Source: Myxococcota bacterium (GTDB lineage: Bacteria; Myxococcota_A; Polyangia; Nannocystales; Nannocystaceae). From it: 64,000 bases of DNA. Below the pieces are notes generated by a model. That model was not told where the DNA came from. It did no database searches and saw only the letters and a list, made by a program, of their open reading frames with translations. Shown piece after piece: positions 26,774-44,597 of this stretch. The stretch is from assembly GCA_039028615.1 (NCBI GenBank), contig JBCCHT010000027.1, positions 128,001-192,000 on the forward strand, given 5' to 3'. Made by a program: the position numbers and the translations under genes. Position 1 is the first letter of the stretch. Each line of letters opens with the position of its first letter.

Positions 26774-27580
26774 TCAGCCCACGGGGGGAAAGCACGGGAA
26801 CTTGATCACCCCGTCGACCTCGCCCCAGTTGAGGCTGACGGGCAACGACCGCATTCCGAGCGGGGCCAGGATGCGATTGACGCTGTCGATGTCGGCGGGG
26901 GTGAGATAGCCGCCGCCCGGCGTCGCGTATTCGGAGCTCACCACCAAGCCTCCACCCGCGTCGGTGAACTCGAGCACGGTCTGCAGCTCGGCGTTGCTCG
27001 GCTGCTCGCCTCCGTCGAGGTAGGCCGACTCCTCGAAGTAGATGACCACGTCGTAGTCGTCGGCGAGGAGCGCGGGGGCGCCGACGTAGCGGGCCGGGAG
27101 GTGGATGGAGGCGGGGAACACGTGGTCGCCGAGCTCGATCTCGTCGGCCCAGCCGAAGGCGAGCAGCCGGGGCTCGGGCTCGTACCCACCCGCCAGCCAC
27201 GGAAGCAGGGGGCACTCGGTTACTTCTTGCAGAGGCAGCGAGCTGTCGGCGGCGGCGATGAAGCGGCCCCGGCCGAACGTGCCCATCGCATACACGACGC
27301 TTCCCTCGAGCTCCGCGGTGGCGAACACCTGCTCGCCCGTGACTTCGAGCTGCCCCGACTGCATGGAGTCGATTTGCACCGAGCAATCGACACACTCCCC
27401 CGGGCCCGCAGGGCCCACGTCGAGCACTGGCATGGAACCCGAACTCGAGGGGTCGTCCTCGCCGGTACTCTGCGACGGGGTCGCGGGGCCCGTGCTGGCG
27501 GCAGGGGGCAGCATGGGCTCGGAAGCGACCGTGCAGGCGACACTCGCGAGTAGCAGTGAACCGACGACGAGCCGCACCAT
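26774..27580 (-). CDS. Hypothetical lipoprotein
   Basis: Lipobox SVAC; 268 aa. Confidence 0.6.
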   Translation of the reverse strand: MVRLVVGSLLLASVACTVASEPMLPPAASTGPATPSQSTGEDDPSSSGSMPVLDVGPAGPGECVDCSVQIDSMQSGQLEVTGEQVFATAELEGSVVYAMGTFGRGRFIAAADSSLPLQEVTECPLLPWLAGGYEPEPRLLAFGWADEIELGDHVFPASIHLPARYVGAPALLADDYDVVIYFEESAYLDGGEQPSNAELQTVLEFTDAGGGLVVSSEYATPGGGYLTPADIDSVNRILAPLGMRSLPVSLNWGEVDGVIKFPCFPPVG

Positions 27581-27752
27581 CCCATTTCCTTGGTGTCGGG
27601 ACCGCTGCGGAAGGTTTCGCCGCCGATGCGACCAAGATGGTCACCCACTGCACCGAAAAATGGTTGATGATCGGAGTCGATCGAGTTGGCGGTCCGAACT
27701 ATGCGACGATGGCCATCGTACTGAAGTCACCACTTCACCCTCGTACGTCGAC

Positions 27753-30700
27753 ATGAACGACGACCTCAGCAACCAGAGCACGTTGGCGGGAGACCTCTCC
27801 ACCGAAGTCCCCGCCACGGAGCATTCCAAGGGGCACCGCGTCGAGGTCGAGAGCCCGGCGCAACTCGTCGGTCGACGCTACGGTCGCTACGTGGTGCTCA
27901 GCGTGCTCGGTCACGGTGGGATGGGCATCGTCCTCGAGGGCTATGACGAAGAGCTGGACCGTCGGGTCGCGCTCAAGCTCCTGCACGACCATCTGGGCAG
28001 GCGGCACCGGGACCGCCTGCGACGGGAAGCCCAGGCGATGGCGAAGCTCTCGCACCCCAACGTCGTGCAGGTCTACGAGGTCGGGGACGCCGACGGCCAG
28101 ACGTTCGTAGCAATGGAGCTGTTGCGGGGCCCGACGGTACGGTCGTGGATGGAACAGGAGCCACGGCCGGGCTGGCGAGCGAGTGTCGAAGTGTTCGTGC
28201 AGCTGGGAGCGGGCTTGGCCGCCGCGCACGAGCGAGACTTGGTGCATCGAGACTTCAAGCCGGACAACGCGATGCTCGACGAGGACGGGCGGGCTCGGGT
28301 GCTCGACTTCGGGCTGGTGCGGCAGTGGGGGGACGAGGATTTCGAGTCTTCGACCGCCGCGGACTCCAACGGCTCGGACTCGATGTCCGCTCGAGAAGGC
28401 TCGCTGACCAAGACGGGAGCGCTGCTGGGGACGCCCGCGTACATGTCCCCCGAGCAAATGAGCGGAGCCGCGGTCGATGCTCGAAGCGACCAGTTCAACT
28501 TCTGCGTGGCGCTATACGAGGCGGTGTACGGCGAGCGGCCCTACGAGGGGGACTCGGTGGCGCAATTGATCACGTCGATGGAGCGCGAGTCGTTGCGCGG
28601 GGCGCCCCCCAAGAGCAGCGTGCCCGCGCGGCTGCGCCGGGTGTTGAGCCGCGGGCTGGCCTACGATCCGGCGCAGCGCTGGCCATCGATGGAAGCCCTG
28701 CTCGCTGAGCTGCGGGTGCAGATTGCCCCACGAGGTCGGGCCCGTACCACGCTCGCGGTGGGAGTGCTGGCGCTCGGCCTGGGAGGAAGCTGGGCGTTTG
28801 CGGAATATGTGCAGGTCAAGGACCGGTGCACGGGCGCGGAGGCGAAGCTGGACGGGGTCTGGGACGATGAACGCCGGGCCACGGTGAAGACCGCGATCCT
28901 GAATACCGCGCTGCCCTATGCACCGGACACCGTGGAGCGAGTGGAGGCGCGGCTGGATGCCGTTGCCGCGGCGTGGGTGGACAAGCACACCGAGGTCTGC
29001 GAGGCGACCGCAGTGCGGCAGGAGCAATCGGCTCAGACGCTGGAGCTGCGGATGGGGTGCCTGCAACAGCAGGCCTCTGAAGTCCGCGCCGCGGTCGACG
29101 TGCTCGCCAATGCAGACGCCACCGTGGTGCCCAACGCGATCACCCTGGCGTCCGGGTTGCCCGATGCCAGCCGATGCGACGACGTCGAGGCGCTGCGGGC
29201 TACGGTTGCGCCGCCCGAGCCCGCGAAGCAGGCCGAGGTGGAGGCGCTGCGCGGGCGCCTACAAGAGCTACGCGCGGAGCAGGACGCGGGACGCTACGCG
29301 GTCGCATTGAAGCAGATCGAGCCGGTGGTGGCCGCAGCCACAGACCTGGACTATGCGCCGCTGGTGGCCGAGGTCATGCAGCGACGGGGATCGCTGCAGC
29401 GAAGCAACGGTCACCACGACGCCGCGGAGAAGGACCTGCGCAAGGCCTACGCACTCGCGATCGAGCATCAACACGACGCCGCCGCCCTCGACGCGGTCGC
29501 GGAGCTGACCTTCGTCGTCGGCAGTACGATGGCCCGGTTCTCCGAGGGCCGGGTTTGGGGCGAGACGGCGATGGCCCACGCCCGACGGAGTCGGGACGAC
29601 GAGGAGCTCGCATCCGCCTTCCACACGATGGGCGCCGTGCTCTACACCGAGGGCGACTATGAGGGCTCCATGCGCCACAACGAACGCGCAGTGGAACTCG
29701 TGGAGCGGGCACGGGGCCCCGAGCATTTCGAGGCCGCGCCCTTCGTCAGCAGCATCGGCAACGCGCTCACTGCGATCGGAAAGCACGAGGAAGCCACGCA
29801 GCAGTACGAGCGAGCGCTTCGCATTCTCGAGCAGGCACTGGGTCCAGATCATCCCACCGTCGCCGGAACTCTGAGCAACCTGGGGGTGGCGCTGCGCCGT
29901 CTCGGCGAACTCGACCGGGCCAAGGCGGTGACCGAACGCGCACTGAAAATCCGCGAGGATTCCCTCGGATCCGATCATGCTCTCACGGCCGGTACGTTGG
30001 CCAATTTGTGCGTGCTGCTCAATTTGCGGAATGACAACGAGCAAGCGCGGACCTGCCACGAGCGCGCGCTCCGGGCCACCGAGAACGCCCTGGGACCCAC
30101 GCACCCCGACGTCGCCCATTCCGCGACCAACCTGGCCATCACGCTGCAGCGGCTCGGTAAGGCCGAGCAAGCCGAGCCGCTGTTCGAGCGAGCATTGCGG
30201 GTCAAGGAGGAGGCACTGGGTCGCGAGCATCCCGATGTCGCCCTCGCCCTGGGCAACCTGGGCATGGTGCACTGGGGCCGCGGGGAGTATGCGAGTGCTC
30301 GGCCGCTATACGAACGAGCGCTGGCGATTCTCGAAGCAGAGCGGGGACCCGAACATCCGCAGGTTGCATCGACCGTGTCCACGCTCGGGGAGGTCTACCA
30401 ACGGCAAGGGGACGATGTGCGGGCACGGCAAATGCACGAGCGCGCGCTGGCGATCATGGAGAAGGCGCTCGGACCGGACGATCCGAAGCTGGCCAAATAC
30501 ATGCACAGCCTCGGGATGGTGCTGCTCGATCTGGGCGAGCGGGACGAGGCCAGGGCGTATTGGGAACGGGCGGTCGGGCTATCGCCGGAGCCGGAGAAAG
30601 ACCCCGTGGACCTGGCGTATCCGCTGGTGGAGCTGGCGAAGCTCGCGGTCGCCGACGGGCAGATGTCACAGGCGCGTGGGTACGCCGAGCGGGCAGTGGC

Positions 30701-30920
30701 GATTCGGGAGAAACACGAGGCGGACGCGATGCCGTTGGCGATCGCCCGGTTCACGCTGGCGCGAGCCCTGTGGGTAACCCCGGGGGAACGAGTGCGGGCG
30801 CGAGCGCTGGCGCGAGAGGCTCGGGAAGTGCTCGAGCCAAGCGAAGAGCATGACGAGCAGGTGCAGGAGATCGAGCGTTGGCTGCAGCGCCACGGCTCGC
30901 CGGCCAGAGCCCGAGGCTGA
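27753..30920 (+). CDS. Ser/Thr protein kinase with TM and TPR repeats
   Basis: GHGGMG, HRDFKPDN, DFG, GTPAYMSPE; kinesin-light-chain-like TPRs. Confidence 0.93.
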   Translation: MNDDLSNQSTLAGDLSTEVPATEHSKGHRVEVESPAQLVGRRYGRYVVLSVLGHGGMGIVLEGYDEELDRRVALKLLHDHLGRRHRDRLRREAQAMAKLSHPNVVQVYEVGDADGQTFVAMELLRGPTVRSWMEQEPRPGWRASVEVFVQLGAGLAAAHERDLVHRDFKPDNAMLDEDGRARVLDFGLVRQWGDEDFESSTAADSNGSDSMSAREGSLTKTGALLGTPAYMSPEQMSGAAVDARSDQFNFCVALYEAVYGERPYEGDSVAQLITSMERESLRGAPPKSSVPARLRRVLSRGLAYDPAQRWPSMEALLAELRVQIAPRGRARTTLAVGVLALGLGGSWAFAEYVQVKDRCTGAEAKLDGVWDDERRATVKTAILNTALPYAPDTVERVEARLDAVAAAWVDKHTEVCEATAVRQEQSAQTLELRMGCLQQQASEVRAAVDVLANADATVVPNAITLASGLPDASRCDDVEALRATVAPPEPAKQAEVEALRGRLQELRAEQDAGRYAVALKQIEPVVAAATDLDYAPLVAEVMQRRGSLQRSNGHHDAAEKDLRKAYALAIEHQHDAAALDAVAELTFVVGSTMARFSEGRVWGETAMAHARRSRDDEELASAFHTMGAVLYTEGDYEGSMRHNERAVELVERARGPEHFEAAPFVSSIGNALTAIGKHEEATQQYERALRILEQALGPDHPTVAGTLSNLGVALRRLGELDRAKAVTERALKIREDSLGSDHALTAGTLANLCVLLNLRNDNEQARTCHERALRATENALGPTHPDVAHSATNLAITLQRLGKAEQAEPLFERALRVKEEALGREHPDVALALGNLGMVHWGRGEYASARPLYERALAILEAERGPEHPQVASTVSTLGEVYQRQGDDVRARQMHERALAIMEKALGPDDPKLAKYMHSLGMVLLDLGERDEARAYWERAVGLSPEPEKDPVDLAYPLVELAKLAVADGQMSQARGYAERAVAIREKHEADAMPLAIARFTLARALWVTPGERVRARALAREAREVLEPSEEHDEQVQEIERWLQRHGSPARARG

Positions 30921-31050
30921 CACTCGAGGTCAACGGCACAGTCGCTCTCGAACGCTGCGGGGGCACGGCGGTGAACTTGGTCCGCCACACGAGCGCCTCG
31001 AAGCACGACCCAGTGCGACCGGAGCTCGAATTTATTTGTCACCGACTTGC

Positions 31051-31079
31051 TTGACGAGGCCCCGCTCGTGCCCTAAAGA
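31051..31079 (+). promoter_or_regulatory. Putative sigma70 promoter of tRNA locus 1
   Basis: TTGACG-N17-TAAAGA with AT-rich upstream sequence. Confidence 0.5.
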
Positions 31080-31087
31080 CAAAGAAC

Positions 31088-31251
31088 CGCGTCACTTCGA
31101 CGCGTGCATTCGTCATGAACCGCTCCGCGCAGACTCATCGCCACCATCATGTGGTGATCGTGCATTCGATGCACGATATCTGCCCGTGTTGAGCGGTTCC
31201 CGGCGTTTGTACCCAACTTGATGGACTTCGCCGGGCCTCTCGGCACGGGCG
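31088..31251 (+). promoter_or_regulatory. Structured leader with alternative helices (attenuator-like)
   Basis: 31117-25 pairs with 31191-99, versus 31181-93 with 31239-51 plus 31199-205 with 31229-35. Confidence 0.6.
31115..31192 (+). CDS. Putative His-rich leader peptide MNRSAQTHRHHHVVIVHSMHDICPC
   Basis: Manual translation: 6 His and 1 Asp in 25 aa, upstream of tRNA-Asp/His; shares its stop-context motif with 44469..44564. Confidence 0.6.
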   Translation: MNRSAQTHRHHHVVIVHSMHDICPC

Positions 31252-31313
31252 ACCCCTCACCCATTCGTTGGCCATGTCGACCGAGCCCCATTTGGCTCGA
31301 AGACGGGGCCCAC

Positions 31314-31385
31314 GGGGTCGTGGCGCAGTGGTAGCGCACCCGGTTGTCAGCCGGAAGGTCGCGGGTTCGAATCCCGTCGGCCCCG
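31314..31385 (+). tRNA. tRNA-Asp(GUC), atypical
   Basis: Cloverleaf GGGGTCG/CGGCCCC, loop TT-GTC-AG, TTCGAAT, G73; C27-A43 mismatch; followed by CCG. Confidence 0.88.
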
Positions 31386-31447
31386 CCGAGTCGTTGTCTG
31401 TCGACTCTCACCATCTTCTTACTCAACCACTCAACGACAAACACATC

Positions 31448-31519
31448 ATGAACAACATCGAGCAATCCAACGGCGAGGACGACTCGACCCATCATCCGAT
31501 GGCGGGTGTAGCTCAGTAG
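31448..31519 (+). other. Spacer mini-ORF MNNIEQSNGEDDSTHHPMAGVAQ running into tRNA-His
   Basis: Starts in the ACATCATGAACA motif shared with spacers of the minus-strand array. Confidence 0.35.
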
Positions 31520-31577
31520 GTAGAGTGCCGGAATGTGACTCCGGTGGGCGCCGGTTCGAGCCCGGCCACTCGCCCCA
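31501..31577 (+). tRNA. tRNA-His(GUG)
   Basis: Cloverleaf with G-1:C73, loop AT-GTG-AC, encoded CCA. Confidence 0.92.
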
Positions 31578-31618
31578 CAAATTCCTCCCCATGCGGTCTC
31601 ATCGGCTGGCCACCTCGG

Positions 31619-32251
31619 CTAGATCCGAGGACCGCGAGACTTCGACCGGTCGTAGATGACCTCGGTCACCGCGTAGGTCGGCGTGTACTCCAGCACGTTC
31701 ACCACCGGGTTCTTCGCGCCCGAGAGGCCGTACACGGTCCTCAATCCCCGCAGCAATACATCGAGGTACAGGCGTTCGTAGAGGTTCTCGGGGTAGGTGA
31801 TCCGTCCGAGATTCCCGTTTTGGTTGCGCTCCAAGTGCTCGCGCTCGGTGCCGCGACGGAGCGCCCTCCAACGCTTCGATGCACCCCTGGACAGCCTACC
31901 GGGCGAAAGCACGGCAAAGATGACCCGATACAGCGGTCCTGAGAGCGTCGCGCGTAGGTTGCGTTCGCCCCAGTCGAGATAGTCCTCATCGCTCCCGAAG
32001 AACGCCTCCCGCAGCGTGCCGTTCAGCGCGATCATATGAGCCTCCGGCACCCACCCCGAAGGCAGCGGCAACGGATCGAACATGGCCTGCACCGGCTCCG
32101 GCAGCCGACTCAGGTCGAAGCCTTCGGGCGGGTTCTCGAGCACCCCGCGAACAAACGAGCCTTTGACCACCGCCTCGGGGTAGGAATCGAGGCCGTCGGG
32201 CAGCGTGCTCAGCCACTCGTCCGTCCGCGGAAAACCCTCGAACTGCCCCAC
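31619..32251 (-). CDS. Myxobacterial hypothetical protein (possibly DUF2378-like)
   Basis: LPDGLDSYPEAVVKGS; family recalled from memory; start uncertain. Confidence 0.5.
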   Translation of the reverse strand: MGQFEGFPRTDEWLSTLPDGLDSYPEAVVKGSFVRGVLENPPEGFDLSRLPEPVQAMFDPLPLPSGWVPEAHMIALNGTLREAFFGSDEDYLDWGERNLRATLSGPLYRVIFAVLSPGRLSRGASKRWRALRRGTEREHLERNQNGNLGRITYPENLYERLYLDVLLRGLRTVYGLSGAKNPVVNVLEYTPTYAVTEVIYDRSKSRGPRI

Positions 32252-32429
32252 CCGATCACGATACCGCGACGGCGACTTTTCCCTGTGGCCCGGGCCGGGC
32301 CATGGACCGCGGGTTTTCCCCGCGTTCATCGGCGGTTCTACTACAGCACTCGCGCCCAGCCATGGTTGGCAGTGATCTCGGGTTCGCAGATCATGCGAGA
32401 CCAGTCCGCGAGCAACACGGCACTGCCGA

Positions 32430-33380
32430 TCAGTCGGCGCGAAGCGTGCACGTGTCGAACCCCGCGCTCAGGATCTCGGCGTCGAGATCGAGCCCCAGAA
32501 TCACGAGCCGGCTCGTCCGATCGGCATCGGCCCAGGGCAGCCCCAGCGTGACCTCGATCGCCTCGCCGACCCCCTGGAGGATCACGCGTTCATCGACGCC
32601 ATGCACGGCGAGAATCCCCTTGATTCTCGCGATCTTCGTCTGAATCGCGCCCAGCGTGGTCTCCACCCAGTGCCCGAAGCGGTCCTCGTCCAGCTCCCCG
32701 TCGTGGACCAGGGACACGGCCTTGATCCCACGGTGTTGGCCTCGGGCTTCTTTCGGCACGACTCGAAGCACCCCGGCCCGCGCCGCGAGCAGTTCCTCGA
32801 GTGAGCCTGCGTTCGGATCGTCCAAGCGTCCTCTCCGCGCTCGCGCGAACACGGCTCCGGGGGCATAGGGGGTCAGCTCCTCCGCCCGCGCGGTCACATC
32901 TGATTCCGTGCACTCGTCCACATGCGACATCACGACGACATCCGCGAACCCGAGCTGCTCGATCGTCAGGTCGTACCGTAGCGCGCGGTGGGCCCGCGCC
33001 ACGTCGATGACTGTGACCACCCCGTCGAGTCGAAGCCGGTCCCGCGCCGTGCCCCAGGTGAGCGCTCGGATGACACCAGCGGGCGAGGCCGCCCCCGAGG
33101 TCTCGACCACGATCCGTGACGGCCGGGGCGTGGCGTGAGCGAAGCCGGTCAACGCGGCATCGAGCGCGGCCTGGGTCGTGCAGCACACGCAGCCCCCGGT
33201 GATCTCGAGGATCTGCGATGCACGCGAGGCCAACAGGGCCCCATCGATCCCGACCTCGCCCTGCTCGTTGACGATCACCGCCGTATCGGAAGGCAGAGCC
33301 AATAGCCAACGGTCGAGCAGCGTGGACTTGCCCGCTCCAAGAAAGCCCGTGACGACGGTGACGGGGATCGGCGAGTCCAC
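32430..33380 (-). CDS. COG0523/CobW-family GTPase metallochaperone
   Basis: GFLGAGKST, NEQG, GCVCC, ETSG, RIKG C-terminal domain. Confidence 0.9.
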   Translation of the reverse strand: MDSPIPVTVVTGFLGAGKSTLLDRWLLALPSDTAVIVNEQGEVGIDGALLASRASQILEITGGCVCCTTQAALDAALTGFAHATPRPSRIVVETSGAASPAGVIRALTWGTARDRLRLDGVVTVIDVARAHRALRYDLTIEQLGFADVVVMSHVDECTESDVTARAEELTPYAPGAVFARARRGRLDDPNAGSLEELLAARAGVLRVVPKEARGQHRGIKAVSLVHDGELDEDRFGHWVETTLGAIQTKIARIKGILAVHGVDERVILQGVGEAIEVTLGLPWADADRTSRLVILGLDLDAEILSAGFDTCTLRAD

Positions 33381-40535: not shown

Positions 40536-41510
40536 TCACGCCCCCGCTGCACACAGCGACGCGTAGCGCACCTCGTCGCCGCGCCGGGCGACCTGACCGG
40601 CCAGCTCGGGACTGGCGACCGTGGTCAGGACGATGCGAGCACGCCAACGACCGAGCTGGTCGTCGACCGCCCCCTGGCTGAGGACCAGTCCGGCGAGACG
40701 CCGCACGACCGCCTCCACGTCGGCGCGCTCGCGCGACGTCGCTTCGGCGAGCGCTGCCTCTAGGCCCTCGAGGCGGTCGTCGATCACCCGTAGCGGCCGA
40801 GCGACGGACGCACGCTCACCGAGCGCCCGTGCGACCTCGATCGCGAGCGAGCCGTAGCAGACCCGCACCAGGGGCTCCCACACGTGACGCCAGAAGGCCT
40901 GGTTGGGCGCCAGCTCGACCCCCACCACCCGACCACCGATGAGGATGATCGCGCCACGCTGATCGGGGACCAACTCGAACTCGGCGACGAACTCGTCGAG
41001 TTGCTTGGCGAAGTGACGGAGGAAGTACTCGAGGTGTCCACCGCCGCCCCCCGTGGACGCGCCCAGCCGGGTGTTGAAGCGCGTGATGTCGGGCCACAGC
41101 TTGTCGTAGCCCGTCTCGTTGCGCATCGCGAGCGCACGGCCACGCAGGGCAGCGGGGAGCACCACCATCGGATGCTTGTCTCGCCCGATGTAGCCCCCCT
41201 GCGACTGCTGAATGCAACGCGCAGTGTCGATCTTGACCGACTGCCCCGCCCGCATCAGCTTGCCGCTGCCGATCGCGTGATCCTGCGCCGCTTGCCGGAC
41301 CACCCACCCCGCGCCCGGAGGCACGATGGTGGGACGGTCGTCGTCGTTGCGCAGATCGACGGTACCGTAGTGACTCGTGCCGACCTCGACGTGGGGCGGG
41401 GCGAACGTCTCGTCGTCCTCGCCGAGCAGAGGGATCACCTCCATCACGCCGACGCTCTGACGTCGACCCGTTCGGGTTCCACGCAGGATGTCTTCAACGG
41501 TGAGTCTCAT
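40536..41510 (-). CDS. ARPP/DUF6569-like domain protein (324 aa)
   Basis: Starts MRLTVEDIL with an ATGA overlap to the upstream gene; QDHA, CIQQSQGG, FELVPDQRGAIILIGG; family recalled from memory. Confidence 0.55.
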   Translation of the reverse strand: MRLTVEDILRGTRTGRRQSVGVMEVIPLLGEDDETFAPPHVEVGTSHYGTVDLRNDDDRPTIVPPGAGWVVRQAAQDHAIGSGKLMRAGQSVKIDTARCIQQSQGGYIGRDKHPMVVLPAALRGRALAMRNETGYDKLWPDITRFNTRLGASTGGGGGHLEYFLRHFAKQLDEFVAEFELVPDQRGAIILIGGRVVGVELAPNQAFWRHVWEPLVRVCYGSLAIEVARALGERASVARPLRVIDDRLEGLEAALAEATSRERADVEAVVRRLAGLVLSQGAVDDQLGRWRARIVLTTVASPELAGQVARRGDEVRYASLCAAGA

Positions 41511-43123
41511 CTCAGCACCTCTCGATCTGCCCTCGGGGGCAGCGACGTCATGCGCAGTAGCGCATCGATCACACGCTTCGGCTCGTGGTCGAGCATGGCT
41601 CGCAGCAGCGAGATTCCGGACGCGTCCGGCTTGGTCATGGGTAGGGTGGGCACCAGTCCCGGCGCCAGCTCTCGCACCCCCGAGGTCTCTGCCGCGACCA
41701 CGGGATTGATATGGACGATCGGAGCCCGAATGCCGATCCGCTTCAGGTGCGCGCACACGTCCGCGAACCTCCCGGCGGGAGCGTTCTCGTAGCCGTCGGA
41801 GATCACGTAGATCACGTCGGGCCGCAGTCGGAGCATCTGCAGCAAAGCGCTGGCGAGGTTGGTCTCGCCCTGCGGACGAACGAGCCGGCCGAGGTCGGGA
41901 TTCGCCACACCGCCCACGTAGCGCACATGCCCGTGACCGGCCGTGTGCAGCAGCATGTCTCGAGTCGCCAGGGCGGTGGCCATGGGCCGCAGCTTCTGAG
42001 TCGTCGAGCCGAACATGGACGCCGAGCCGTCGACGATGACCCCCACCGACTCGTAGTGGAACGGGAACTGAAGCGCGGCCTTGCGAGCCTTGTCGTCCAG
42101 CGCTCGCTCGATCGGCGAGGTCATGCCCATTTCGAATGCGTAGATGTAGAGCTTCACTGCCTCCAGTCGTGTCGGGTCCATCTCGACGTCGACACCAGCG
42201 TCCTTGGCCTGACGCTGCACGGCCATGCGTTGGCCGGCCGACATGCTTCCCTTGCTCAGCTCGAGGAGCTGAGCCTTGCCCACCTTCGAGTGGTAGGTCG
42301 CGGCGATGCCTTGTAGCACCTCGAGCGGCAGCCCCTGGCCCGCGGCCAGGTCGGTCTTTGCGGCTTGCGCCTTGTAGAAGACCGGGATGGACCATGCCGT
42401 ACGCTCCGCGCCCAGGATGTAGGCCACGCACTCGCGCAGCCACGCGACGGGAGCCCTGGGCGCCCATCGGTCGACCTCCTCACGCAGGATCTTGTGTTCC
42501 TTGTCGCCGATGCGCGCCGGCTCCTTGCCGAGGATCGAGCGCAGGATGCCCGTCTTCCGCACGCCCCACGCGTGGGTCAGCGCCGTGCTGAGCTTGTCGC
42601 GGTACTTGACCGCCCACCAGTCCAGCGAGCGTGCCCGCAGGAGCGTCCGTAGTACGAGCTTCCGTGCCCGGTTGGTGTTGACCCGACCGGAGCCCAGCGA
42701 CTCGTCCTTACCGCGCAGCGAGACCAGCAGCCGCAGCATTCGCGTGGCCGGTAGCTCGTGCAGCAGGTCGTCGACCAGAGCGAGTTCCTGCCCGGCGCTC
42801 ACGATGGAGCCCGTGCCCATGCGCGGTCGCATGAGCAGGCTACGTACGCCGAGCTGACGCGTCCGGTCCGTCACTCCGGGCAGAGTGAGGAACGCGGCGT
42901 ACAGGCCACGATCCAGCGCGAGCATGTCCCCGTGGGACCTCTGCTCCGCCGCCCGGACCTCGCCCTCGTCGTTGTAGTGCGTCGCCCGGCCCAGCCCGGT
43001 TGCCGCGTGGTCGAGGAACGAGCGTACGACGTCGCGCACTCGCTCATCGGCCACCCCAACGGGCGTCGCCCACGTGGGCGTCACGGCCTTGCGACTCAGC
43101 TCCGTGGTCTGCATCGTATCCAT
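41507..43123 (-). CDS. Ro60/TROVE-like helical protein with C-terminal vWA domain (538 aa)
   Basis: Basic helical N-terminal region; MIDAS DGSAS...T...ISDGYEN; GGAG SD; Ro60-like size and architecture. The vWA is solid; TROVE is inferred. Confidence 0.6.
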   Translation of the reverse strand: MDTMQTTELSRKAVTPTWATPVGVADERVRDVVRSFLDHAATGLGRATHYNDEGEVRAAEQRSHGDMLALDRGLYAAFLTLPGVTDRTRQLGVRSLLMRPRMGTGSIVSAGQELALVDDLLHELPATRMLRLLVSLRGKDESLGSGRVNTNRARKLVLRTLLRARSLDWWAVKYRDKLSTALTHAWGVRKTGILRSILGKEPARIGDKEHKILREEVDRWAPRAPVAWLRECVAYILGAERTAWSIPVFYKAQAAKTDLAAGQGLPLEVLQGIAATYHSKVGKAQLLELSKGSMSAGQRMAVQRQAKDAGVDVEMDPTRLEAVKLYIYAFEMGMTSPIERALDDKARKAALQFPFHYESVGVIVDGSASMFGSTTQKLRPMATALATRDMLLHTAGHGHVRYVGGVANPDLGRLVRPQGETNLASALLQMLRLRPDVIYVISDGYENAPAGRFADVCAHLKRIGIRAPIVHINPVVAAETSGVRELAPGLVPTLPMTKPDASGISLLRAMLDHEPKRVIDALLRMTSLPPRADREVLR

Positions 43124-43146: not shown

Positions 43147-43301
43147 GATCGTTCGCAAAAAGCAGCCCGGGCCAAGGTCGGGGCCAACTATGGGTTCCAG
43201 AACAGGAATCGAACCTGCCCTCTTCGTTTCCAACGAAGTGCGCTCCAAATGCGCCATCTGTAATGGCTCCAGAGTCCCCGAGCTACTCTTTGCGATCGAT
43301 C
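43147..43301 (-). ncRNA. tRNA-like cloverleaf (anticodon GGA, 43191-43263) enclosed in a 25-bp helix; candidate Y-RNA-like RNA
   Basis: Arms 43277-43301 and 43147-43171 pair with 3 G-U and 1 mismatch, and the G-U pairs work only on the minus strand. Inner D, anticodon and T arms plus CCA. Confidence 0.7.
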
Positions 43302-43311
43302 GTAGTTGTCG

Positions 43312-43341
43312 TGGAGACCCGAATTCAGCCTCGGGTCTCCA
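43312..43341. other. Perfect 11-bp spacer hairpin
   Basis: TGGAGACCCGA-N8-TCGGGTCTCCA. Confidence 0.7.
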
Positions 43342-43359
43342 GCAATTTTCATCGTTCTA

Positions 43360-43436
43360 TGGTGGGCGCGGCAGGATTTGCACCTGCGACCTCTCGGTTA
43401 TCAGCCGAGTGCTCCAACTCCCTGAGCTACGCGCCC
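43360..43436 (-). tRNA. tRNA-Ile(GAU), atypical T loop
   Basis: GGGCGCG/CGCGCCC, loop CT-GAT-AA, T loop TGCAAAT, A73, CCA. Confidence 0.88.
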
Positions 43437-43486
43437 AGGGTAATCATCGCGGGCTCGTCGAGCGAGCCCATACCGTACATGTCCAT
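43427..43486 (-). other. Spacer mini-ORF MDMYGMGSLDEPAMITLGA ending inside tRNA-Ile
   Basis: GAGG SD plus ACATCATGGACA start motif. Confidence 0.35.
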
Positions 43487-43505
43487 GATGTCCTCAATCT
43501 GTCTT

Positions 43506-43580
43506 TGGTACCGGGTGAGGGAGTCGAACCCCCAACCATCAGTGTGTAAAACTGCTGCTCTACCGTTGAGCCAACCCGGC
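43506..43580 (-). tRNA. tRNA-Val(UAC)
   Basis: GCCGGGT/ACCCGGT, loop TT-TAC-AC, A73, CCA; G27-A43 mismatch. Confidence 0.88.
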
Positions 43581-43632
43581 GTGGGTCCAGCGGGTCGCAA
43601 TCCGGCGACCCTGCGTGGGACTCACGACGGTA

Positions 43633-43707
43633 TGGAGGGCGGTGCGGGATTCGAACCCGCGATCTCCTGGGTTGCAGCCAGGCGCCTTGCCACTCGACCA
43701 ACCGCCC
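43633..43707 (-). tRNA. tRNA-Cys(GCA)
   Basis: GGGCGGT/ACCGCCC, loop CT-GCA-AC, U73, CCA. Confidence 0.92.
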
Positions 43708-43713
43708 TTGCGG

Positions 43714-43781
43714 CAGGTCGCCGGGGGATCGAACCCCGTCTCGTGGAGTTGGAGTCCACGGTCTCCTCCAGGAAGCGACCC
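43714..43781 (-). tRNA. tRNA-Trp(CCA)-like with reduced D arm (68 nt)
   Basis: GGGTCGC/GCGACCT, 6-bp anticodon stem, loop CT-CCA-AC, intact T arm, G73. Confidence 0.7.
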
Positions 43782-43862
43782 ATACGAACCGAAGTACGTA
43801 CAACATCGCCAGGAGCGACCGAGGATGTGAAGTGGTTGGATCATCGTCCTCGTCCTTTTCGG

Positions 43863-43935
43863 TGGACCGGGTGGGAGTCGAACCCACGACCTTCTGCGTG
43901 CAAGGCAGTTGCTCTCCCAGCTGAGCTACCGGCCC
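43863..43935 (-). tRNA. tRNA-Ala(UGC)
   Basis: G3:U70 identity pair, loop CT-TGC-AC, A73; A27-A43 mismatch. Confidence 0.92.
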
Positions 43936-43967
43936 ATGGGGGTCGCATGCCCTCCTGACCGGAGGGC

Positions 43968-44003
43968 CTACCTCGCGGCAGCGTCCTTTCGTGAAATGTT
44001 CAT
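43968..44003 (-). other. Spacer mini-ORF MNISRKDAAAR upstream of tRNA-Ala
   Basis: ACATCATGAACA start motif; followed by a GCCCTCC/GGAGGGC hairpin. Confidence 0.35.
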
Positions 44004-44065
44004 GATGTCACCCGTAAAAATTGGACAGTGGGTCAAGTTTGAAGAGATGAATTGGATCCCCTTGT

Positions 44066-44137
44066 CGGGGATCGTTGGTTTCGAGCCAACGAATGGAGGC
44101 GTTTTCAGTGCCCTCTGTAGTCTCTTCGTAGTTCCCG
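44066..44137 (-). pseudogene. Degenerate tRNA-Phe(GAA)-like element
   Basis: Loop CT-GAA-AA and T arm GTTGG-CTCGAAA-CCAAC retained; acceptor mismatches, no D stem. Confidence 0.55.
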
Positions 44138-44145
44138 TCGTCCGG

Positions 44146-44275
44146 TGGCGAGGGCTGGAGTCGAACCAGCAAACTTCCGTTTTCGAGACAGACGCCTTTA
44201 CCTGAAACCCCTCAGTAGCCCCCGGATCGCATCCGGGCCAGGTGTCGAGGGGTTGAACCATTTGGCTACCTCGCC
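44146..44275 (-). ncRNA. tRNA-like RNA (anticodon CGA) with a 57-nt hairpin inserted in the D loop
   Basis: Perfect GGCGAGG/CCTCGCC acceptor, GCC/GGC D stem, intact T arm; removing 44201-44257 leaves a 73-nt cloverleaf. Confidence 0.8.
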
Positions 44276-44400
44276 GTATGTGATGTGCAGTTGATCGGGT
44301 CGTGAGAAGTGAAGTTCGTGAAGCCAACGATGGCCACACGGGCGTACGAAGCCCTCTCGGCGTAGGGCCGAGTCAGCGTGGCTCCGCGTGGAGCCAAAGC

Positions 44401-44597
44401 GTCGCGGGGGCTATGCCCTCGAGCGTCCCGATGCTCGTCGTATGAATGGATTCACACCGGGAGAACGCTCAACACGCGACAATCTCGCCCGCAAGGCGGA
44501 CGAGCGACCACAAGGCGGCGGCCTGGGCCGACGCTGGGGTCGAGATGTTCGTGAAACGTTCCATGGCGTGAACTCGTCGATCGCCCTTTGCAGGGCG
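44401..44597 (-). promoter_or_regulatory. Structured leader with alternative helices, same architecture as 31088-31251
   Basis: Start-region GAACGTTT pairs with GAGCGTTC, versus TTGAGCG/CGCTCGA, TCCCGGTG/CATCGGGA and GTCGCG/CGCGAC. Confidence 0.6.
44469..44564 (-). CDS. Putative leader peptide MERFTNISTPASAQAAALWSLVRLAGEIVAC
   Basis: Manual translation; ends I-x-x-C-TGA like leader 1; contains every amino acid represented in the downstream array. Confidence 0.55.
   Translation of the reverse strand: MERFTNISTPASAQAAALWSLVRLAGEIVAC

Follow-up and report, generated by a model that had tools for sequence, protein, structure and literature searches.

Leader open reading frames with codons cognate to the downstream tRNA genes in a Nannocystaceae genome: a candidate sensor ahead of accessory tRNA-Asp and tRNA-His

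Within a 64,000-nucleotide (nt) stretch of a Nannocystaceae genome (contig C27, positions 128001–192000 of an assembly of 12.27 Mb in 94 contigs; hereafter the window), a short open reading frame (ORF) at 31115..31192 of the forward strand lies ahead of a tRNA-Asp and a tRNA-His gene and carries six His codons and one Asp codon. This ORF is probably a translated leader that senses the decoding of His and Asp codons and gates the accessory tRNA-Asp/tRNA-His operon, as one of a modular family of such leaders. The anatomy of the leader, the correspondence between its codons and the tRNAs that follow, the constraint on its reading frame and two alternative helices at its end can all be read in the DNA and are described below. 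The original prediction had singled out this His-rich upstream ORF (6 His, 1 Asp) and the absence of a his biosynthetic gene behind it, and both observations hold, as the two tRNAs are found by ARAGORN and by the Rfam tRNA model, and the next coding-like ORFs past tRNA-His lie on the opposite strand and consist of a frame of 236 amino acids (aa) with no Pfam match (31619-32329) followed by a CobW gene (32430-33380).

Codons of the leaders and the tRNAs that follow them

The leaders of this family are built to one plan: segment A at the start and segment B at the end, the latter including the TGA stop, are conserved, and the codon core between them varies. When homologous and paralogous loci are compared, the core codons follow the identity of the tRNAs downstream. 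Loci were scored by the summed fraction of core residues cognate to their array, with the core taken from residue 6 to the third from last, and the tRNA sets were shuffled among loci 200,000 times. In 14 loci that have the B motif and downstream tRNAs (the C23 locus described below stood outside the sources of this test), the score was 5.055 against 2.366 ± 0.451 in the permutations, none of which was as high; with six types whose tRNA sets are not nested, a single one of 720 permutations reached the observed score. Another 22 loci, found with a covariance model (R1) and tested with L110, L111, L121 and L135 left out, gave 7.76 against 4.62 ± 0.50, and 6.54 against 3.03 ± 0.50 when Thr was omitted, again with 0 of 200,000 permutations as high in either case. 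Because no permutation was as high in two sets of loci, a chance ORF is excluded.

Over 39 loci, each of the 14 amino acids tabulated is commoner in the cores when its own tRNA is in the array, by at least 1.9-fold, with Gly, Ser and Trp resting on one locus each and Ala and Cys on two. Asp accounts for 9.2% of core residues where its tRNA is present and for 1.3% where it is absent, and the corresponding values are 7.5% and 0.6% for Lys, 13.2% and 2.9% for Met, and 10.0% and 1.9% for Asn. As for His, all seven loci with a tRNA-His have His in the core, at a mean of 13.7% (n = 7), against 1.6% in the 32 loci that lack this tRNA. The original prediction, which had interpreted the ORF as an attenuator exerting feedback on the tRNA genes themselves, had proposed to see whether the codons follow the identity of the downstream tRNA at homologous loci, and had named His-free leaders before tRNA-His as the observation that would speak against it; the codons do follow it, no such leader occurs among these 39 loci, and the correspondence, as far as sequence goes, lends support to the idea of an attenuator with feedback.

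The R1 model, trained on 17 leaders with the helix between A and B as its sole structure, found 43 matches in 28 of 73 genomes of the taxonomic family, in 8 of its 17 genera. Downstream tRNAs were present for 24 of the 26 matches outside the training set, and of the other two, one lies 120 nt from a contig end and one is partial. An ORF running from ATG to the stop in B was found in 21 of these 26 loci, while two stop elsewhere and three lack the ATG (one of them, which was read, starts with GTG); in all, two of the 26 start with GTG or appear to. Arrays behind leaders hold between 1 and 16 tRNAs, and the operon behind the ORF at 31115 holds two. At one locus (L129, in G051:C45), a Met-rich leader with seven Met codons stands before ten tRNA(CAT) genes and one tRNA-Ile.

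The genome studied here carries further members. The window itself contains a paralogous leader ORF on the reverse strand (44469..44564), which has 31 codons and the same A and B, scores 88.2 bits with R1, and contains many Ser (every one of them TCG), Ala, Val and Ile codons besides a single Trp and a single Cys. It precedes an array of seven tRNAs, also on the reverse strand (43191..44216), for Ser(CGA), Ala, Trp, Cys, Val, Ile and Ser(GGA). Two more leaders with A and B ends are found on contigs C23 and C43; in one, before Thr/Phe/Asn/Lys/Lys, 15 of 30 residues are cognate (p = 1e-8), and in the other, before Met/Phe, 8 of 24 are (p = 1e-7). Leaders with divergent ends precede Arg/Leu (18/36 cognate), Cys/Gln (8/32) and four Ser plus Tyr (12/36), with p = 2-3e-4; all these p-values are binomial, calculated against the six-frame background for the best ORF of each of 60 clusters, and uncorrected. 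The last of these loci (L096, contig C3:258280-258723) is compact, as its five tRNAs, all class-II (Tyr and four isoacceptors for Ser), have gaps of -1 to 6 nt between them; upstream lie a leader of 37 codons, nine Ser and three Tyr among them, and a strong promoter-like site.

No cognate-enriched upstream ORF was found at housekeeping clusters of the same genome (for example Thr-Tyr-Gly-Thr, Gln-Glu, Pro-Arg and Glu-Lys), nor did a generic scan find an enriched ORF upstream of some 20 housekeeping tRNA-Asp or tRNA-His genes that stand singly in other genomes. The same kind of scan, applied to loci fetched for their tRNAs, brought up three more members, in G005, G016 and G023. Within the taxonomic family, a 14-letter motif taken from B lies ahead of tRNA arrays in four genera, whereas in 401 genomes of the class it gave 68 matches where the reversed control gave about 55; of 19 motif loci fetched from outside the family, not one had a downstream tRNA, and the matches L077, L078 and L082-L085 were judged to be noise. 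Matches in collections of phages and plasmids were limited to the tRNA parts of the locus. A Paenarthrobacter plasmid match proved to be an ordinary 35-tRNA array and not a member of the leader family; at 97524-105802 of plasmid NZ_CP053545.1 (L097), matched through its tRNA-Asp and tRNA-His, 35 tRNA genes occupy 6 kb beside a Fic-family gene.

Among the 73 family genomes, BLAST found a homologue of the 31115 leader only in G002, which belongs to the same genus, and the other matches of the leader alone were short chance matches in coding DNA or an unrelated promoter. A pattern scan of genome contigs likewise returned G002 only, besides chance matches in Bartonella and Chitinophaga, and two such scans of metagenome contigs returned none. 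The window and the 40-kb G002 contig share only the unit running from the promoter to tRNA-His, with flanks that are not syntenic; the remaining DNA matches between them are due to paralogous kinase domains. The G002 leader ORF has 28 codons, with six His and three Asp, and a net indel of 9 nt. Over the B region, 41 nt are 100% identical between the two, at every third codon position too, and segment C, which follows the ORF and is described below, is an invariant block. The linker to the first tRNA, by contrast, cannot be aligned with that of G002, where an extra tRNA-Asp(GTC) sits between the leader and the conserved tRNA-Asp; this extra gene (L003 1332-1407) has a different sequence and a G at position 37 of its anticodon loop.

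A second relative, a contig from a DNA sequencing run (X2), spans 31066-31579 with 38 differences and six gaps. Three of the changes listed fall in the leader ORF, all at first codon positions (31127, 31145 and 31157), and the one at 31145 (C>G) replaces His by Asp (codons read by eye), so that the cognate set is kept. Both homologues retain His codons. No listed change falls in segment B, or in C over 31220-31249, whereas the linker (31250-31313) has at least 10 substitutions and one deletion, with the changes at 31290-31291 lying within a hairpin loop. In the hairpin at the 5' end of the leader, the listed changes are confined to the loop (31096-31098).

Reading frame and alternative helices

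In all 15 loci defined by the motif, the frame from the ATG in A to the TGA in B is open, in spite of the fact that these leaders come in nine lengths (24, 25, 28, 30, 31, 32, 33, 41 and 48 codons); by our reasoning, a non-coding element would have placed each new length in frame one time in three. Codon choice is also uneven. Among the cognate NNY codons of the leaders, 38 of 55 (69%) end in T and 17 in C, against 12 and 21, respectively, of the 33 non-cognate ones, while the share of T-ending codons in 858 long ORFs of the genome, used as a proxy for coding sequences, is 14.3%. T-ending codons are those read by G:U wobble, and for this reason the bias fits a sensor tuned to tRNA shortage, even though part of it is the general composition of the leaders. 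At 31115, where the ORF has 25 codons from ATG to TGA, His occupies codons 8, 10, 11, 12, 17 and 20 and Asp codon 21, and CAT accounts for four of the six His codons.

Reading the anatomy from the sequence, we would describe a member of the family as a strong promoter followed by a 5' hairpin, the start segment A, a core of cognate codons, the end segment B with its TGA, and then segment C. Upstream of the ORF at 31115, the promoter-like region (31029..31079, forward strand) was read by eye and comprises an AT-rich stretch (31029-31039), a -35 element TTGACG (31051-31056), a 17-nt spacer, and a -10-like TAAAGA (31074-31079); a strict sigma-70 consensus scan called no promoter upstream of this ORF. 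The region is kept in the G002 homologue and its -35 also in the X2 contig, and paralogous leaders have the same upstream layout of a T-rich stretch, TTGAC and a TAAA-like hexamer. We infer the transcription start site and a transcription unit shared by the leader and the tRNAs. The 5' hairpin P0 (31088..31104), present in the minimum free energy (MFE) fold, has a 6-bp stem (31088-31093:31099-31104) and a 5-nt loop, and hairpins of differing sequence, seen by eye and not counted, occupy this position in other family members. Segment A (31117..31128) falls in codons 1-5. Segment B (31180..31205) takes in the last codons, the stop (31190-31192) and 13 nt beyond, and segment C lies at 31229..31252. 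The linker that follows (31253..31313) is poorly conserved except for a 6-bp hairpin (31282-31287:31294-31299), and leads to the accessory tRNA-Asp(GTC) at 31314..31387 (74 nt, anticodon loop TTGTCAG, 65.8 bits) and the accessory tRNA-His(GTG) at 31502..31577 (76 nt, with encoded G-1 and CCA, 64.3 bits), both called by ARAGORN and scored with the Rfam tRNA model.

Segment B has two possible partners, and the two helices are mutually exclusive. At 31115 it may pair with A through 31188-31199, or with C through 31180-31194 (with 31238-31252) and 31199-31205 (with 31229-31235), and the latter duplex has an energy of -23.9 kcal/mol (RNAduplex). In the family, the A:B helix joins positions +2 to +13 from the ATG with the stop and the next 7 nt, and is paired in 15 of 15 loci. 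On an alignment of 17 loci with 170 cells, 93.5% of the cells are paired, whereas sliding the partner leaves 14.7-50% paired; five cells at two pairs show compensatory change (AT/GC, AT/CG), and among 500 shuffles the percentage paired was reached by three and the covariation score by four. Segment C usually lies 45-60 nt past the stop, and in all 15 loci it gives a duplex with B, at energies from -13.2 to -26.3 kcal/mol. Covariation across the family links the bases that precede CGTG in B to those that follow CACG in C, and on MAFFT columns 67.9% of the B:C cells pair, against 24.5-57.1% when slid, with nine compensatory cells, a number reached by 5 of 500 shuffles. Overall, the support from covariation for the two helices is moderate. 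The G002 MFE fold uses B:C. In most members, a short local hairpin (C':C) also uses C as its 3' arm and leaves the CACG flank outside, and this flank could act as a toehold for B.

Other features lie close to the leader and its operon. A Ser/Thr protein kinase of 1271 aa with long TPR arrays (27105-30920, forward strand) ends 130 nt before the promoter-like site. Small ORFs occur in the spacers between tRNAs: one at 31448-31519 (forward strand) has Asp-Asp and His-His ahead of tRNA-His, another at 43968-44003 (reverse strand) has three Ala codons ahead of tRNA-Ala, and a further ATG lies at 43484-43486 (reverse strand); the three share the context CATC-ATG-RAC and have codon doublets or triplets for nearby tRNAs. 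We took the Asp-His one (ATG at 31448) for chance, since the X2 relative loses its ATG, one Asp and one His.

Mechanism and competing explanations

The translation of the leader, the direction of control and the effector step are what we infer by analogy, and the way of working that we propose was modelled on attenuators of the trp and his type. When cognate aminoacyl-tRNA is plentiful, the ribosome would reach the stop in B, so that B is masked, or later locked by A; C would then fold locally, in most members as C':C, and the operon would stay low. When a cognate tRNA is scarce, the ribosome would stall in the core and hinder A, and the free B could invade C. The resulting B:C form of the RNA would allow the tRNA genes to be transcribed or matured, which would amount to product feedback on particular tRNAs. 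As for the effector, our best guess is either a premature termination that needs no classical U tract or a block of maturation.

Several observations weigh against this interpretation. By itself, the enrichment of the ORF at 31115 is modest, with Asp and His making up 7 of 24 residues where 6.7% would be expected (binomial p = 8e-4, uncorrected, for the best of several upstream ORFs), and it is the evidence from the family that places this ORF beyond chance; the enrichment of the paralogue at 44469-44564 is weaker still (14 of 24 core residues cognate to its seven-tRNA array, p = 0.02). Since the loci are related by descent, the p-values of the permutations overstate their independence. A subgroup of long leaders, which stand ahead of Thr/Asp or of a lone tRNA for Thr or Asp, is little enriched (1/34, 2/48, 3/33 and 2/23). 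Pairs changed on both sides were reached by 221 of 500 shuffles for A:B and by 465 of 500 for B:C, and the B:C duplex energies stand without a shuffled control. No Shine-Dalgarno pairing precedes the ORF at 31115 (+0.4 kcal/mol); the median for the leaders is -3.1 kcal/mol, compared to -3.15 for the genome's own genes and -2.5 for random sites, and because these values are so alike, they neither support nor exclude leader translation in this genome. Three RNA sequencing runs contained a share of 0.04 of the sequence words, and none of them covers the locus. Finally, with a terminator defined as a hairpin followed by at least five T in eight positions between the ORF and the tRNA, the C':C region is devoid of a canonical terminator in all 15 main-type leaders, and a search for a Rho rut site gave no consistent support either (C minus G skew of the linker between -0.02 and +0.14). 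In the absence of a classical terminator in the main type, the model in which stalling frees B, B:C replaces C':C and the tRNAs are released is one that we draw by analogy.

It is on this last point that the best-surviving alternative is built. The sensor might be real and yet stalling might not raise the level of tRNA, if the switch sets the processing or decay of the precursor, or lowers tRNA when decoding is poor. We regard this as rather unlikely. Among main-type leaders, L091 is the only one with a hairpin and U tract, which lie 120 nt past the stop, and apart from it, matches of this kind were limited to a mini-hairpin of 4 bp lying in B and to hairpins within the ORF of one subtype; the linker at 31253-31313 contains no hairpin followed by a U tract. 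The C':C hairpin, moreover, has no U tail, and the linkers are long and poorly conserved. Such features speak for this alternative, but the logic of feedback favors induction upon shortage, the divergent Pro/Leu leader of G023 does have a canonical hairpin and U tract about 30 nt past its stop, directly beyond the ORF, and A, B and C come in an order in keeping with the 1-2-3 logic generally known for attenuators.

A leader RNA that is structured but not translated, acting in processing, stability or protein binding, with frame and codons as mere by-products of structure or composition, would account for the strength of the fold. The stretch 31085-31313, in fact, folds at -104.4 kcal/mol against -78.4 ± 4.6 for shuffled sequences (z = -5.6), and the G002 leader has z = -3.9; the His codons overlap a hairpin, the identity with G002 over 41 nt extends even to third positions, and the Shine-Dalgarno site is missing. 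This explanation, which seems improbable to us, is akin to an alternative listed in the original prediction, that of codons imposed by RNA hairpins. It leaves unexplained why the composition of the core tracks the downstream tRNAs, why there are nine length classes all in frame, and why cognate codons prefer to end in T. The X2 relative is also informative here, as its change of His to Asp at 31145 disrupts the pair 31145:31153 in the hairpin of the His codons, and no other change compensates for it.

Direct sensing in the manner of a T-box, in which leader triplets would pair with tRNA anticodons and no ribosome would take part, might be suggested by the match of the triplets to the downstream anticodons and by the structure of the leader, and yet it is very improbable, as the triplets of the leaders are numerous, stand for as many as seven amino acids and share one frame whose start and stop are conserved, unlike the single specifier in a defined loop that is generally known from T-boxes. 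In Rfam searches, no family, His_leader and T-box included, matches the leaders (E up to 10 for the window and up to 1 for nine other loci), and the only models that match in these sequences are those for tRNA.

Equally hard to credit is a small metal-binding His/Cys peptide tied to CobW, an idea that the original prediction had also entertained, or else a chance ORF. The sequence is His-rich and ends in Cys-Pro-Cys, and a CobW gene lies 1.2 kb away, but only the leader-tRNA unit is shared with G002 (kinase paralogy aside), so that CobW is unlinked there, the terminal Cys codon is part of the conserved RNA segment B in leaders of quite different composition, and chance is excluded by the permutation tests.

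Accessory tRNAs and known regulatory systems

ARAGORN identified 86 tRNA genes in the genome, 25 of which lie behind seven leaders. All 21 anticodon classes found behind leaders also have a leaderless copy, and the two copies often differ at loop positions 32, 37 and 38. A second, different tRNA-Asp(GTC) is found on contig C85, for instance, and a second, different tRNA-His(GTG) on contig C22. Accessory tRNAs of nine other loci score 43-72 bits with the Rfam tRNA model; two of the class-II tRNAs of the Ser/Tyr locus L096 match the tRNA-Sec model only, at 41-43 bits, below threshold. In the seven-tRNA array of the window, five tRNAs score 49-68 bits. The tRNA-Trp(CCA) at 43712-43781 (reverse strand), 70 nt long and 4 nt from tRNA-Cys, matches only the tRNA-Sec model, at 27.8 bits and below threshold, and the tRNA-Ser(CGA) scores 27.2 bits with the tRNA model, for which the threshold is 29, and was called by ARAGORN only in its 73-nt 3' part.

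The region of this tRNA-Ser(CGA) (44141-44280, reverse strand) is peculiar: inside a perfect acceptor stem of 7 bp lie a D-like arm, an additional hairpin of about 49 nt ahead of the anticodon arm, and then the anticodon and T arms; the z-score of the fold is only -1.5. At the other end of the array, an ORF of 538 aa (41507-43123, reverse strand), with high GC at third codon positions and no Pfam match, starts 68 nt past the last tRNA in the same orientation, and might be co-transcribed with the array.

Short leader ORFs with codons cognate to the product of the operon are well known from hisL, trpL, pheL, thrL, ilvL and leuL, among which the thr and ilv leaders sense several amino acids. The leaders described here resemble them in having such an ORF and alternative helices that overlap its end and stop, and, in our proposal, in that several amino acids would be sensed at once, as in thr and ilv. 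At 31115, an ORF with its own start and stop lies between the promoter-like site and the tRNAs, as expected of an attenuator, and cognate codons in the regulatory position and mutually exclusive helices at the ORF end are found across the family. The intrinsic terminator that precedes the structural genes in amino-acid attenuators is, on the contrary, missing from the 15 main-type leaders and present in the divergent leader of G023. The two systems would differ further in that the genes controlled here are tRNA genes and the product sensed would be the tRNA itself, and the codon core is here exchangeable between conserved A and B modules.

Other known regulators are comparable in part. The pheM leader of pheST and the T-box riboswitches regulate synthetase or amino-acid genes according to the state of the cognate tRNA, which T-boxes bind directly, with no ribosome; similarly, a gene of the translation apparatus would here be controlled by the state of a cognate tRNA, with the difference that the targets are tRNA genes and that no T-box model matches. 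The proline-codon leaders of Salmonella mgtA and mgtCBR (mgtL and mgtP type) have a short ORF and alternative stem-loops, and their output is not necessarily an intrinsic terminator. The leaders studied here may likewise use a codon-sensing short ORF to choose between stem-loops, and differ from them in target genes and codons, with no relation in sequence.

From the portion of the literature available to us, the nearest concept is the trn L-array of Anabaena sp. PCC 7120, which according to the accessible part of PMC8421152 holds 23 tRNAs, is silent, becomes induced under translational stress, and is regulated by way of direct repeats within its promoter that are taken to be a repressor site. 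In both cases the tRNA genes are split into a housekeeping and a supernumerary subset, the latter conditionally expressed in Anabaena when translation is impaired (PMC8421152, same portion), and here all 21 leader-borne classes duplicate the housekeeping set. That report uses none of the terms leader, attenuat- and uORF, and unlike the L-array, the arrays described here are small and each lies behind a codon-specific leader. They also fall short of the definition of a tRNA array unit given in the accessible part of PMC4758250, which requires at least 20 tRNA genes at a density of at least two per kb. A full-text literature search, whose scope excluded subscription journals, found no report of leader-peptide control of tRNA genes.

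A broader and more tentative idea is that the divergent second set of tRNAs, that is 25 of 86 genes in seven operons with codon-programmed leaders, may serve as an on-demand back-up against the depletion of specific tRNAs, caused for example by anticodon nucleases of competitors or phages, or by a sudden codon demand. The replacement isoacceptors, given their differences at loop positions 32, 37 and 38, might escape the attack. If so, these leaders could possibly represent the first case of ribosome-mediated product feedback on tRNA genes and a natural, modular multi-codon sensor.

To our knowledge, the control of bacterial tRNA genes is thought to be global, exerted by growth rate and the stringent response, and not to act on each tRNA separately. 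If our interpretation is correct, a leader that gauges the availability of the tRNAs under its own control would provide direct product feedback on single tRNA species, and would explain how supernumerary tRNA sets can be kept silent and still be useful. There is a bearing on genome annotation too, as the leader ORFs of 24-48 codons and their proposed RNA switch are absent from every library searched, and the modular design of the family, with A and B fixed and the core exchangeable, offers a natural template for engineered codon- or tRNA-specific sensors.

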